From contig LN717261.1 in the NCBI GenBank assembly GCA_001244265.2, positions 1,689,591 through 1,753,590 on the forward strand: a stretch of DNA of 64,000 nt. The letters run 5' to 3'. Position 1 is the first letter of the stretch. The number at the start of each line of letters is the position of its first letter. The stretch is from Microbotryum violaceum. Lineage: Eukaryota. The position numbers and the translations under genes were made by a program. Below, piece after piece: positions 3,852-54,610 of the stretch. Under the pieces are notes generated by a model. It was not told the DNA's origin and ran no database searches. It saw only the letters and a list, made by a program, of their open reading frames with translations.

Positions 3852-4557
3852 TCTTTTCGGCCTTTGCTGCAAGATTTTGACACGGACAGCTCAAGCGCAC
3901 TGGTCTCGGCCTAACGGGGCCCGCTCGCGCTCGTTTCGTGTTGTGGTTCCGGCACCCCCCCCCTGTCAGTCTCTACTCACTCAAAGTGGGTAACATCCCT
4001 CGTAAGCCCTCTGCTCTTGACAGTTGGACTGATGAGCTAGCAGCCGCCGTACCCGCTGCTTTGCAAGGTCGTATCGCACCCACTGCTTAGAGCAAGGGCG
4101 AACTTTTCGAGACTCGCACTATCGCGGCTCGCTGTTTCTAGCTAAGGTTCGCATTCCGGATCACGACTGTCCTTGTTGGGTATGTTGCCAAATTCCTTGT
4201 CCTTGTTGGGCAAGTTGACTCATGGGGCTACCTTGTATATAGACCTCGTTTGGCCGCGTCTACCTACCGCGTCGCCTTCCTCCCCTGCCATCGCCCTGCG
4301 CTTTTCGAGCAAAGGTATGCCCTATCCCCCAATTCAGTTGCAGTGTTTAGGTACTAATCGGACCTGCGCTCTTTGAGCAAAGCCGATCGACCATTTATTT
4401 ATTTTTTGGGCTCCTCCCTCCCACCCTACTTGTTCATAACTCCTGTTTACAAAACCCTTCGTTTGTTACGGAGTGCGGGTTTTTCTCTTATCACTGCAAC
4501 TCGACTCTTCCATCCTAAAACAAACGCCACAAACAGCGCGCACTATGGAGGAGTCGA
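3851..4557 (+). mobile_element. Terminal A+B repeat block of a Ngaro element (family related to 47720-52014)
   Basis: GTCTTTTCGGCCTTTGCTGCAAGATTTTGAC (3851) matches GTCTTTTCTGCTTTTGCTGCAAGAGTTTGAC (51054). TGTCCTTGTTGG..GTTGACT..GGCTACCTTG is shared (~4198 vs ~51603). The end TTGTTACGGA...GGAGTCGA matches B2 (51929-52014). Confidence 0.7.
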
Positions 4558-4771
4558 ACGCGCGTAAGCGCGCGAAACCTCGTAAAGCAGTCGTTAAGCG
4601 GCCTACACATGCGCGCGCGCAAATTATGGAGGGCATCAGGCAGCTTTTGCCCTATGAGGCCCGTAGGGCAAGTTTCGGGATTCCACTTTCACTCTCACTT
4701 TCACTTTCGAAGCCGAAATCGCCCCACGCCACACCTTCGGTTACGCCAACAAGTGATACACAGAGAGATCC

Positions 4772-34776: not shown

Positions 34777-40223
<5,447 letters not shown>

Positions 40224-46894: not shown

Positions 46895-47652
<758 letters not shown>

Positions 47653-47700
47653 TAGCTTGCGCGCGCCTAGAACCTCCCTTGGCTTTCGCCAGCTCACTGA

Positions 47701-49659
<1,959 letters not shown>

Positions 49660-49663
<4 letters not shown>

Positions 49664-50925
49664 CGAACATCAGACAAGAGGACAGAAGGCTTGTCTCCTT
49701 TGTGCCCCGTCCTCTCTTGGAGCCGGCTACTTGAGCTCAGCCGATGCTCCCGCTGGATGATCTTCATCAACTACGCGACGAAGCCGCCATCCTTGCGCTT
49801 GAACCCAAAGCTCGATCAGACTACGCTCGAGCTGTGCGGCAATGGATCGCTTTCATCAGCTACTACCGCGCTCAGGGCCATAACATCATGTATCACCCCA
49901 CCAAAGACATGTTGTCGGCGTTCATCCAACATCGCTTCCGTACGGTCTCCTCGGTGTACCAGACACTCTCTGGCCTCGCGTTCCAATTCCTACCGATCAT
50001 GGGGAATACATGGACAACAGTGTGCTCCTCACAACTAGTCAGAAACACAATCATTGGCGGTATCAAGCTTAAGCGTCGAGCTCGGAAGCAAGCTAAACCG
50101 CTAGGCTTCCGCTCCGTGGCCTTTGTACTTCGCACGGCGGGTGTAAGGCCCGTGCGCCTGGGCCTTATGAGAAGGGAGCGCGCGCCTGGACACTCTTAGT
50201 CTCCCCTCAGCGACTAACACGAGTGTCCAGGTGAGCCTATGGTGGATCAGAAGTCATAGTCATTGTAGCGACTAACACGAGTGTCCAGTGTTAATTCCAC
50301 ATACTTTGGTCCTGTGGTACTCTCGTCGTCGCTCTCTGGTGTACACTCCTACGGGGTGTATTACAGCGGGGGCACTCCGGGATCTGGACTACGACTCGCT
50401 CCTGTTCCTTGCGATGGTGTCTCTAGGTTTCGCGTTGTGTGCACGGACTGCAGAGCTCACTGTTCCCTCAACAATCCGTTTTCGGGATCCAGCCGAACTC
50501 CCGCGACGCAGCACAGTGAAGATGGACTCCAATGGCTTCTCAGTCCATCTTCCGTACCACAAGGCAGACCGCCGTTGGCAAGGGTCGTTCCTGTACTTCA
50601 CACCCTGCACAACGGATCCAGCCTTCCTACGCATCCTGCATCGCTACCTGCAGGCCCGGGATAGTCGGAACAAGTCCTCCGACCTGCTGTTCTTGACAAG
50701 GGGAGGTCTCCCACCCACCCGCACCTGGTTCATTGGCCGCCTCCGTCGCACCTTCGGATCAGCTTACAGTGGACACTCTCTTCGAGCCGGAGGTGCGACT
50801 CACTACGCTCTGTAAGGTCACTCGGCGGATATCATCAAGCGGCTCGGGTGTTGGCGCTCGTCCGCTTGGGAGCAGTACGTCAGGGTTTCCCCTCAACTGC
50901 AGCAAGCCCTCCTCAACTCAGCATG
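49660..50925 (+). pseudogene. Ngaro tyrosine recombinase, split by a solo LTR
   Basis: DYARAVRQW N-domain; catalytic ARTAEL, YHKADR, YSGHSLRAGGAT, LGCWRSSAWEQY. In-frame TAA at 50813. Confidence 0.92.
50142..50365 (+). mobile_element. Gypsy solo LTR (224 bp)
   Basis: TGTAAGG...TATTACA, 5-bp TSD GCGGG; homologous to LTR 44794-45016. Confidence 0.92.
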
Positions 50926-52377
50926 AACCCACATCTTACATCTGCCGATCATCACCACAATTACACAATACGGGATGCCTGGTTCTTATGCTGCAAATCC
51001 GACTCCATCTCAGCTATTTCGGTTCGCATTGCGCTCTTACGATGGAGTCGATGGTCTTTTCTGCTTTTGCTGCAAGAGTTTGACGCCGAGGACTCAAGTG
51101 CGCGCGACCTCTACCCTCCTTGCAGTAAGCCGTGCTCGCACGCCTGCCTCGAGCCTTGGTCTGTAAGCCGCACTTGCGCAAGAGTTTACCAAGCCAGCTC
51201 CTGCCGCACCTTTCAGTTCCCACTGCTTGCCGTTGCCGTACCAGTATCGCTGTGTACCTCTGCCACCTCCTGCCAAGGTCAGTGGCCTTCCTTGAACTCT
51301 TCCTGCCGCCAATTGGCTGACAGGTTCCGAGCTTCTCACAGGACCCCCCCCAGCGATACCGTACAGCTTCCGCCTTCCAGTCTTCTGCCTTACCAGTTGA
51401 CGACGAACAGCTGCCACTGTGTATGCCTCTCTTTTTCAACACTCCTTGTTGGATGGTTGACTGACGCTCCATACTTTGTATGCAGCCGTCCGCCCGCACC
51501 TGCCAGTGCTGCGCCTCTTTCGGGTTTGATTGCGTCTCGCTCAAAGAGCCGAGGTACATCACCCCCTTTCAGGATCTCCCTTAGGGTACTCCTGCTTTCG
51601 ACTGTCCTTGTTGGACACGTTGACTGACTTGGCTACCTTGCTACACAGACCCAACCTCGACATACTAGCGTCCGAGGTCTGTTTCCTTTGCTGTCTTCTT
51701 GTCTCCAAGCGACACGCTTTACAAGCATAGGTATGCCATAGTCCTCAGAGTCTTTGCAGTATTCCGAGTACTAATAGAATCGCGCTTTACAAGCATAGTC
51801 GTTCTATCTTTGTCTCCTCCCACCCACCCTTCAAAATAAATAAATACAAAAACAGCCTTGTTGGTCTATTTCTTTCCTTTACTTTCTTATCTATGGTCTC
51901 TCGTGAGTAGATTTTCAACCCATCCCATTTGTTACGGATGCCTGGTTTTTATGTTGCAAATCCGACTCCATCCCAGCTATTTCGGTTCGCATTGCGCTCT
52001 TACGATGGAGTCGAAGTCCTCAGCGTCAAACTCTTGCAGCAAAAGCCGAAAAGTGATTGTTGATCATTTCGGGATCATTGCTGATTCCAACATGGTAGTG
52101 TCTGTCGGTTAACAAGAGAAAAGGGGCGGCTGTCTCCTAACCATGCTGTAGAGCAAGATGCCAAAGCAAGGTTCTAAGGGGAAGTGTGAGGATCTATTAT
52201 AGAACCTTTCATGTAAATCTTTCCAATGACGTTGCACAAAGTTACCGGAGCTGCCGCAGAAGCTTGACACAGAGTCTAATTTGGACTTAGAGTCAACACA
52301 TTGCAATAGCCTGGCAGCAGTGCAAAGGTCTAAGGGGAAGTGTTGAAGGTGTTAGTAGACCTTGCACTAATATCAGG

Positions 52378-52450
52378 GGCCGGATAGCTTCGTTGGTCAA
52401 AGCTTTTCCAATGAATGGAAGCGATCCAGGTTCGACTCCTGGTCCAGCCG
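52378..52450 (+). tRNA. tRNA-like sequence (73 nt), non-canonical; possible pseudo-tRNA or SINE head
   Basis: Acceptor GGCCGGA/TCCAGCC (1 mismatch); D stem GCTT/AAGC with TGG loop; anticodon arm TTTCC-AATGAAT-GGAAG (TGA anticodon, but A at position 33 and no long variable arm); T arm CCAGG-TTCGACT-CCTGG. A and B boxes intact. Confidence 0.65.
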
Positions 52451-53351
52451 TTCTTCTTCTGTTGTTGATCATTTCGGGATCATCGTCGATTCCAACATTG
52501 TGCACCAGGGGGGCAAACGCGGGGTCGGGAGTTCCTAGTTTTGTGTATGATGCGTTGACGAAAGCGTCTACTTGCAGATTTGACGTCAAGTAGACATCTC
52601 TGTACAGGAGTGAAATGGTCTTAAGAGACTCGAAATTGCGGTTAGTTATGCCGAGTTCCGAAAGAAGGACAGTTTGCTTTAAGCATCATGTCAACGGACC
52701 ATGCGACACCATTGACGCAACACGGTTGGGCAGAGGAGACGATCTGAGTAATCGGGCCTGCGCGCGGTCACAGACCACCCTTAATTCACATGTTCAATTA
52801 CATTGTCTCACGGTATCACTCACCCATCCTCCTCCACAGCTTGGGCAAAAAGGAAGCCCAAGATTCTATGAATGACTTCGGCGGCCGATTGTCGCGTCTC
52901 GACGCGAGGTTGCCACAACTGCTGGCACTCCTCCGCGTACTCTTGCTTCACCTCTACACATGATCGTTGTCGAAGTGTCATATTTGAAGTAGATGAGTAT
53001 CGTCAAGTGAGGACTTTGCGATGGACGGACGCTCTTGAGCTGTCGTAGAGATGAGGAAACGCTTCGCGCTAGGCTGTTGAAGCTCGTGAGCAGCGGCGGT
53101 GCGATGCGAAATGTGTCTCACCGTCTTGAAACGTTGTCGGGCCGCTGAGCCGTAAATCACGCCGCTGCACAGTACACAGCCCGCCAAGGGTCTTTGAAAA
53201 CAAAGAAGACAAAGAATGGGCACTCAATAATGCATGTATTAATGTTTAGTCTACATAGTACTGACCCCTGCGCAAATTTCTCAATCCACTAGTCAACTAA
53301 GAAGCGAGCTTCTGTCGCCCCTGTGCGTGCCTTCCGCCTTCAAATCTGCGC

Positions 53352-54610
53352 TCACGCCTTGGCGGCCGACGGGGCTTCATATCGCACACCCGCATCAAGT
53401 CTAGCCTTGGCCAGCGCCAATATTCTTTTTACACCCTCATAACCGATGAACGAATCGATGCCGTTCCTTGCCTCCCATTCCACCCCCGATGACGAAAATT
53501 CGATCATGGCAATGCCAAGTGCGCGCACGATTTCTTCCAATCTGGCCGCAAGCGCAGGAGCATCGATTCCACCGAGGGCTCGGGACGAGGGAATCAAAGT
53601 GAGACGCTGAAGCTTGTTGTCGCTCAATGTCTGAGCAAGAACGAGGCTGTGGGAGGGGAACAGATCAAGTTTGACCTATCGTCTTGCGCATACTATTCAG
53701 AGAGCTGCACTGACGAGAAGAATTGGAGTGGGACCCCAAGTTCCTGCAGTCTGGGTAGGATGTCGAGAATGCTATTGTAAACGCTGGCCGCAGCCTGTCA
53801 GAGGAATTCCCCCGCCCCAATAGACATTGCGCATTGTGACGGGTTTGAGAGGTTGGATGAATTGAGCCATGTCGAGCTGCACAACAGATGGCCTGTGATT
53901 GATGGTGACTACCCATGGCTCAATGACGAGTCTGCGACGGAAATCAGAGGATCAGGTACTGTGGGCGTGGAACTCGACTAAACTCACGTCTCAAGTAATG
54001 GGCAGTTCTGGGTAATGGCGAACATAAATTCGGCTGAGACGTGTCCGTCTGCAAGTAGTTCACGGAGGCCTCCGGTCGGAACAAACGGAGGCCGTGCCAG
54101 CGGCTGTACGCGTGATGTGAGATACTTTAGCGGTAGTTTAGATGCTCAGCACGCAAATTTACTTACCGTGAATGCATTCATGCGCCAGATTGGCGCCACT
54201 AGCTTAATCACCTCGCTTGTCACCATTCGCAAATCCCGCATCTTCAAAGTCTCCAATTCTGGACCTACACATTGCTGTGTGAAGTTCATGGCGCCCATTG
54301 GGTGGCCGCCCGGAGCCCAGGTCGGTTTTCGCGCACGGAGCCCACGGGCGAATTCGTGCAATAGGGTTGTGGATCTCAGGCGGGCCAACTTGCTGGAAGC
54401 CGGGCGGGTGCCACGCCGATCAAAGGGCCTGTGCACCGGGAGTCTGTGTGGGCCTCCATGTCGCCTGGGGGTGTGATACCGCACCGACACCATGCAAAAG
54501 CTGTGGATGCTATAGGGATCAGCCATGGCTCCCGCAACAACCCCATGTAGATCCTGGTGTTAGATACATCACCGTATGCAATCCAGCAGTTCTGTTGGTA
54601 CAGCTATTGT
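53352..54610 (-). CDS. F-box/leucine-rich-repeat-like protein (spliced, probably degenerate)
   Basis: F-box-like VPTELLDCI..DPYSIHSFCMVSVRY. LRR-like ELETLKMRDL, ITQNCPLLETLVI, ILPRLQELGV, LQRLTLIP. GTAAGT..CAG and GTGAGT..CAG introns keep the frame. Confidence 0.55.

Follow-up and report, generated by a model that had tools for sequence, protein, structure and literature searches.

A tRNA-bearing miniature LTR element, very probably a truncated copy of a Helenus-type TRIM family, with two hairpin-framed polypurine tracts

Results

Positions 52057-52497 carry a truncated Helenus-type TRIM

By comparing one segment of the analysed DNA (a stretch of 64,000 nucleotides, hereafter the window) with the remainder of its own genome (33 Mb, 20 contigs), we found that positions 52057-52497 are almost certainly a Helenus-type TRIM, that is a tRNA-bearing miniature LTR retrotransposon. 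The explanation that best fits all our observations, and in which our confidence is high, is that a fungal Helenus/TRIMp3 family has left here a copy truncated at its 5' end, with the route of transcription and helper use proposed below. The family is new, of a kind already known, with a modest new twist. An initial annotation had taken the locus for an undescribed structured ncRNA or a SINE; the structure it noticed is real and its paired hairpins matter, but the class was wrong, and the locus falls into a known type of transposable element, the very case that the annotation had set against its own proposal. The features are the following.

52057-52092, plus strand: U5 (3' end) of the 5' LTR, 92% identical to 52462-52497
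52093-52110, plus strand: primer-binding site (PBS) for initiator tRNA-Met, 17/18 here with one G-U, 18/18 in four other copies
52093-52340, plus strand: 248 bp of internal sequence without coding content (92 bp counting the long LTR), its 5' part found at 5 genome places
52168-52208, plus strand: hairpin 1, 9-bp arms 52168-52176 and 52200-52208, framing polypurine tract 1 (PPT1, 52177-52184) and the TG of the long LTR at 52185
52185-52497, plus strand: long form of the LTR, 313 bp; 11 two-ended pieces, 5-bp target-site duplication (TSD) perfect in 5 and with one mismatch in 2
52319-52368, plus strand: hairpin 2, arms 52319-52332 and 52356-52368, framing PPT2 (52333-52340) and the TG of the short LTR at 52341
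52341-52497, plus strand: 3' LTR, short form, 157 bp, TGTTG...CAACA; 40 two-ended pieces, TSD perfect in 27 and with one mismatch in 5
52378-52450, plus strand: tRNA-like part of the LTR, with an A box (52385-52396), a B box (52429-52439) and an anticodon loop of non-canonical form
52451-52463, plus strand: T-rich trailer, with a T4 run in most copies that is interrupted by a G in the window copy
52566-52595, plus strand: 9-bp stem in flanking DNA, outside the element, since copies end at 52497; chance level

The copies and their boundaries could be recovered genome-wide. The genome search gave at least 45 matches with common ends (40 of 84 candidates scored), and a 22-nt B-box pattern matched 67 times, a few of these being duplicates common to contigs C1 and C2, compared with 0 matches for the reversed control. 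The 3' end of the copies lies at window position 52497 (CAACA). Their 5' end lies at 52341 (TGTTG) or 52185 (TGTGA), that is at a TG 37 or 193 nt 5' of the tRNA-like segment, and both starts sit immediately 3' of AGGGGAAG (52333-52340 and 52177-52184). The 37-bp repeat described in the initial annotation corresponds to the U5 terminus of both LTRs: its two copies (52057-52092 and 52462-52497) are there as described, while its supposed self-complementarity comes down to a stem of 6-7 bp.

Out of 78 aligned pieces, 51 retained both ends (40 short, 11 long). Perfect 5-bp TSDs flanked 32 of these 51, all of them copies other than the truncated one in the window, which offers none; when the flanks were shifted by 10 nt as a control, perfect duplications were found in 0/40 short and 0/11 long pieces. 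The pieces devoid of a TSD include PBS-followed 5' LTRs, hybrids and rearranged copies. LTR starts of both kinds also appeared as loose ends in three (X1, X7, X8) of the four public runs examined out of 14 listed, any of which may derive from the assembly's own strain.

A whole 5' LTR is present in one copy only, L002, which comprises a 157-bp 5' LTR, an internal region of 248 bp and part of the 3' LTR; a complete element would accordingly measure 157 + 248 + 157 = 562 bp. In the window copy the 5' LTR ends abruptly at 52057, where it abuts the end of another repeat family, and its lost 5' portion was not found elsewhere in the window. The counterpart of the 3' flank on contig C2 lacks the TRIM. 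In several copies (L002, L033, L080, L081, L085, L092) we observed fold-back or head-to-head joints with TRIM or Copia DNA, two of these copies being integrated with two U3-type ends; such joints look like products of aberrant cDNA or auto-integration.

The structure agrees with Helenus in that two LTRs bound a non-coding element of less than ~1000 bp, the sole ORF overlapping it having no Pfam match, and in that a tRNA-derived LTR part with boxes A (TRGCY..YGG) and B (GGTTC) is accompanied by a PBS, a PPT and a 5-bp TSD. This assignment is one of structure, the published consensus file having been compared through three motif look-ups; that file contains neither gattccaaca nor tggtagcgtc (PMC10886601).

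The tRNA-like segment resembles a promoter rather than a tRNA

The initial annotation had described a 73-nt cloverleaf with A and B boxes and an aberrant anticodon arm, and this description holds. ARAGORN called a tRNA-Ser(tga) at 52378-52450, and in a scan restricted to 1 kb the score against Rfam RF00005 was 42.6 bits (E 1.7e-7). At the gathering score, the whole-window Rfam scan returned nothing, the cloverleaf included, and between 51900 and 52900 at E<=10 only the tRNA clan was found, with no ribozyme, retrozyme or other ncRNA. The B box of the window copy, GGTTCGACTCC at 52429-52439, has the same sequence in 46 of 69 copies, and the A box starts with TAGC in 66 of 69. The anticodon loop of the window copy opens with AA, not YU.

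Could this be a host RNA, whether a structured ncRNA, a tRNA-spaced polycistron or a working tRNA gene? The cloverleaf stems are mostly intact over 66-70 copies, as that reading would predict, but U33 is missing from every one of the 28 anticodon-arm variants seen in 69 copies, the central triplet varies between TGA and TTA among copies, a C-A mismatch is kept in the acceptor stem in 65 of 67 copies, and over all stems of 73 aligned copies a single cell, in the acceptor stem of the tRNA-like part, shows a double-sided change. Rfam adds no further family and the unit is bounded as a mobile element would be, so that we consider a host RNA very improbable and no longer retain the undescribed structured ncRNA. 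A functional tRNA-Ser(UGA) in particular fits poorly, as it needs U33, a long variable arm, which the genome's own tRNA-Ser(aga) has, and a constant anticodon. A LINE-mobilised SINE of tRNA origin would share with our element the A and B boxes, the dispersed copies and the common 3' end. Yet the 5' ends are fixed upstream of the tRNA, the TSDs are uniformly 5 bp and no A-rich or repeat tail is present; together with the TG...CA termini, the PBS and the PPTs, these observations contradict SINE2 membership and leave a SINE hardly conceivable. The TG start, CA end, 5-bp TSDs, PBS and PPTs instead define an LTR element. The initial annotation was thereby right about a repeated, tRNA-derived unit and mistaken about its nature, which is neither a SINE, a polycistronic RNA nor a tandem unit.

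As a constituent of this LTR element, the tRNA-like segment would fit a promoter better than a tRNA. Judging from the sequence, the unit is probably driven by Pol III. A run of four T lies shortly 3' of the tRNA-like part in most copies and may be a weak Pol III terminator; the G that interrupts this run here, at 52461, reads T in all four public runs. In the route that we propose, Pol III would initiate within the 5' LTR, at its tRNA-like segment, read past the weak T4 signal and terminate in the 3' LTR, beyond the tRNA-like segment there, giving a predicted RNA of ~490 nt in which the tRNA-like part would serve as R.

We also looked for a tRNA gene from which the segment could derive. Across 40 fetched loci (63 of 950 candidates scored), 39 genes were called, none of them close, and the best alignments, to Arg-ACG and Ala-CGC, were both poor. 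As a side observation, AT-rich tRNA genes of organellar appearance lie on nuclear contigs at three loci (L143, L157, L159) and are possibly mitochondrial insertions.

The primer-binding site matches the initiator tRNA-Met

We take the tRNA-Met gene at L192 for an initiator on account of its A1:U72 pair, the GATC of its T loop and the G-C pairs of its anticodon stem. When the 18 nt 3' of the 5' LTR were compared with the 3' end of this tRNA plus CCA, all 18 matched in L002, L035, L033 and L034. Reverse transcriptases usually stop at tRNA position 58, and the 18-nt match ends just before it. The primer tRNA is different from the element's own tRNA-like part, as in Helenus. The first primer-tRNA pattern that was searched had given chance matches only.

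Two related hairpins frame the two polypurine tracts

Both of the related hairpins pointed out in the initial annotation fold (-9.7 and -15.3 kcal/mol), each with a loop of 23 nt. In each, the left arm adjoins the 8-nt PPT and the right arm begins 16 nt inside the LTR. They belong to a duplicated module of ~55 nt, the second hairpin lacking one T-A pair from both arms. This loss is one event between the duplicated modules and the sole compensatory change: in 73 aligned copies, 6 of which span hairpin 1 and 24-27 hairpin 2, no double-sided change was seen in either PPT hairpin, and covariation inside the family is almost nil. The arms are no better conserved than the loop (departures of 1.5% and 2.5% compared with 2.2%), while arms and loop together are better conserved than the long U3 (11% departures). 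Fold z-scores in 120-nt windows over 52060-52600 were not striking (best -3.8, most between -3 and +1).

We then considered how common such junction repeats are. Exact repeats of at least 8 bp occurred in 56 of 2000 random junctions. In the available part of the published data on fungal Helenus families, 21 of the 24 families with both LTR and internal part show at least 8 paired junction bases, one shows 6 and two show 5, in a count made by eye and unscored, with mismatches and bulges allowed and among related families. The stems of these published junction hairpins are, in the same material, unrelated in sequence; Helenus-1_CCin also carries one, and two sister pairs (LTR-1_PGr/LTR-1_PSt and Helenus-9_PSt/Helenus-6_PTrit) show a compensatory junction change. 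A counter-case is the second tRNA-bearing family of this genome, with a junction repeat of only 5 bp, and the junction repeat of the partner Copia described below is weak (8/9 pairs by eye, the longest in-register exact run being 5). On balance, we lean slightly towards the hairpin guiding PPT processing.

One RNA may give rise to both LTR lengths

Long and short forms have both integrated with TSDs. The simplest reading, and a likely one, is that both lengths arise from one RNA by choice of the PPT, two subfamilies being the less likely alternative. PPT1 and PPT2 sit in the same register in a hairpin loop, each followed by a TG attachment end, and RNase H would leave either PPT2, giving the 157-bp LTR (~4 in 5 pieces), or PPT1, giving the 313-bp LTR. 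Because transcription would start 3' of both U3 parts, the RNA would be identical whatever the parent form, and LTR length would therefore be decided anew in each round. Solo LTRs would then arise by LTR-LTR recombination.

The two lengths might instead mark subfamilies of the same TRIM separate in time, one PPT module being a relic in the other. The long form shows slightly greater divergence (mean identity 0.919 vs 0.930), no whole element with a 313-bp 5' LTR was seen among the copies, and the long LTRs are slightly clustered on the tree, with 18 of 500 shuffles as low. That tree of 63 LTRs is weakly resolved, with good support for 4 of 56 branches and an unsettled bootstrap; it requires 8 changes for the 11 long LTRs, which form a single clade in 0% of 200 bootstrap trees. 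Against separate subfamilies, each anticodon-loop sub-type occurs in both lengths (5 and 4 long, 16 and 19 short), the identity of long-short pairs reaches 0.986, and both PPT hairpins are kept in every copy that has the internal region. We therefore regard subfamilies as the unlikely option, one that nonetheless keeps some weight, and PPT choice on one RNA as the preferred reading.

Hybrids point to a Copia family as helper

In two copies the internal region of the TRIM follows a foreign LTR, that of a Copia family with 33 matches, a protease-integrase-RT order and RVT_2. Its primer site matches initiator tRNA-Met over 12 nt in 4/4 copies. Beyond the primer site, no convincing similarity was detected between TRIM and Copia, with none at E<0.3 for the internal region. 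An unbroken gag-pol frame was found in 0 of the 15 Copia regions fetched. The LTRs of this partner (L047-L055, L061) measure 219 bp and have TG...CT instead of TG...CA ends, and its solo copies carry 5-bp TSDs.

Seven loci join Copia and TRIM DNA. Three of them have matching 5-bp flanks directly at one Copia and one TRIM LTR end (L091, ACGCT; L081, GTTGT; L033, CTCGT); L080 has two intact ends and flanks that do not match, and the second end is not intact in L085, L090 and L092. Public contigs of run X8 contain the L080 and L081 hybrid junctions. Between TRIM LTR and Copia DNA, L085 also harbours at 3982-4717 a small element with ~30-bp terminal inverted repeats.

Hybrids made after insertion, by nesting and deletion or by ectopic recombination, would be uninformative on the helper. 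The genome is dense in repeats and some loci are rearranged or inverted (L002, L080, L085, L092), in keeping with such an origin, but both the three hybrids with matching flanks and the switch point, which in L033, L090 and L080 falls exactly inside the common primer site, speak against it, and we judge it rather improbable. We infer that the hybrids reflect strand transfer between co-packaged RNAs before integration, and this Copia family is quite probably the helper: Copia elements primed by the same tRNA would package the TRIM RNA. Taken jointly, one Pol III RNA with two working hairpin-framed PPTs would yield two LTR lengths, the hybrids would name a Copia helper with which only 12 nt of primer site are common, and the minimal hijack signals would be primer site, PPT hairpin and TG end, not LTR homology; for this combined proposal we see the chances as evenly balanced.

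Flanking DNA and other elements

The 9-bp stem at 52566-52595, which the initial annotation had included in its unit, exists and is not part of it. As a Helitron end or ncRNA part it was discarded, the window containing 7 such stems compared with 2-8 in 5 shuffles.

On the other side, 47650-52057 is a decayed retroelement of the tyrosine-recombinase type whose end abuts the truncated 5' LTR; it has an RNase H match, an HSLR.G motif, a weak integrase match (E 0.23), split direct and inverted end repeats, and at least 43 genome matches to its end. Another Copia lies at 34777-39400 on the minus strand, with its own inverted repeat at the PPT junction (by eye) and a different primer site.

The genome also holds a second tRNA-bearing TRIM family (L194-L206; L200:1181-1689 on contig C12). 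It is younger, its whole copies being 97-99.5% alike, and has at least 41 matches; its 204-bp LTRs end unusually in AG...TT and are flanked by 5-bp TSDs. It has the same initiator-tRNA primer site (14 nt) and is otherwise dissimilar to the Helenus-type TRIM.

Finally, contigs C1 and C2 have ends that are 99.9% identical (L086/L093, L115/L121, L135/L136), and L139 is a 96% counterpart of the window flank at 52499-54070; we take this sharing to resemble that of a pair of mating-type chromosomes.

Discussion

Helenus elements are TRIMs with a tRNA-like LTR segment, a PBS and a PPT, the fungal families having 5-bp TSDs (Kojima 2024, PMC10886601). The group is defined by structure, with several origins thought likely, and an ancient SINE origin has been proposed for its tRNA part; Pol III transcription is putative in published Helenus as it is here, and the case for Copia helpers was built on primer sites, the length of the TSD and a single internal similarity (PMC10886601). 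Our element is likewise a short non-coding LTR element with an A/B-box tRNA-like LTR segment, PBS, PPT, 5-bp TSD, many solo LTRs and Copia as presumed helper, and it shares with a minority of fungal Helenus families a primer that is the 3' end of the initiator tRNA. What sets it apart from the main text of PMC10886601, in which the words 'hairpin', 'inverted' and 'chimer' are absent, are two PPT/hairpin/TG modules, two LTR lengths and physical hybrids with Copia. As in the Cassandra and Ajax TRIMs, our LTR contains a small-RNA promoter, here a putative one, for Pol III, theirs being 5S rRNA and ours tRNA-like; for Cassandra no helper is indicated (PMC10886601).

According to the available part of Bousios et al. 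2010 (PMC2829016), Sireviruses and about half of the other copia elements carry an inverted repeat at the junction of PPT and 3' LTR, a proposed RNase H signal. The arrangement described there is similar to ours: the left arm borders an 8-nt PPT, the loop consists of PPT and LTR start, the right arm lies inside the LTR and more than one PPT is present. In that same material, the upstream PPTs have neither repeat nor attachment site and their role is unclear, whereas in our TRIM each PPT has a repeat and an attachment site and corresponds to a genuine end of integrated copies. In sugar beet, as far as the accessible text of PMC13570524 goes, non-autonomous LTR elements include chimeras that resemble our hybrids in that template switching produced LTR/internal combinations; those chimeras formed among non-autonomous families, while the hybrids here join a TRIM with a coding Copia. 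In the literature available, mostly open and with Repbase not included, we found no report of two used hairpin-framed PPTs in a TRIM, of two LTR lengths obtained via alternative PPTs or of Helenus-helper hybrids; the accessible text of PMC10085805 and PMC5371799 proved to have no bearing on these points.

These findings remove a false ncRNA/tRNA candidate, dozens of such LTRs scoring as tRNA genes. Should the host prove to be an anther smut, they would extend the known range of Helenus; no Helenus was found in Microbotryum, Leucosporidium or Rhodotorula (PMC10886601). That the host is fungal follows from a Pan3 search, in which the named matches within the best 120 were fungi at 44-63%, with no close relative in this set. 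With two PPTs that are both hairpin-framed and both used, the element itself provides a natural test of the role that Bousios et al. propose for such hairpins. The hybrids, in turn, bear on a question left by PMC10886601, namely how a TRIM can depend on a helper with which it has no LTR homology; here only the primer site is common to the two.
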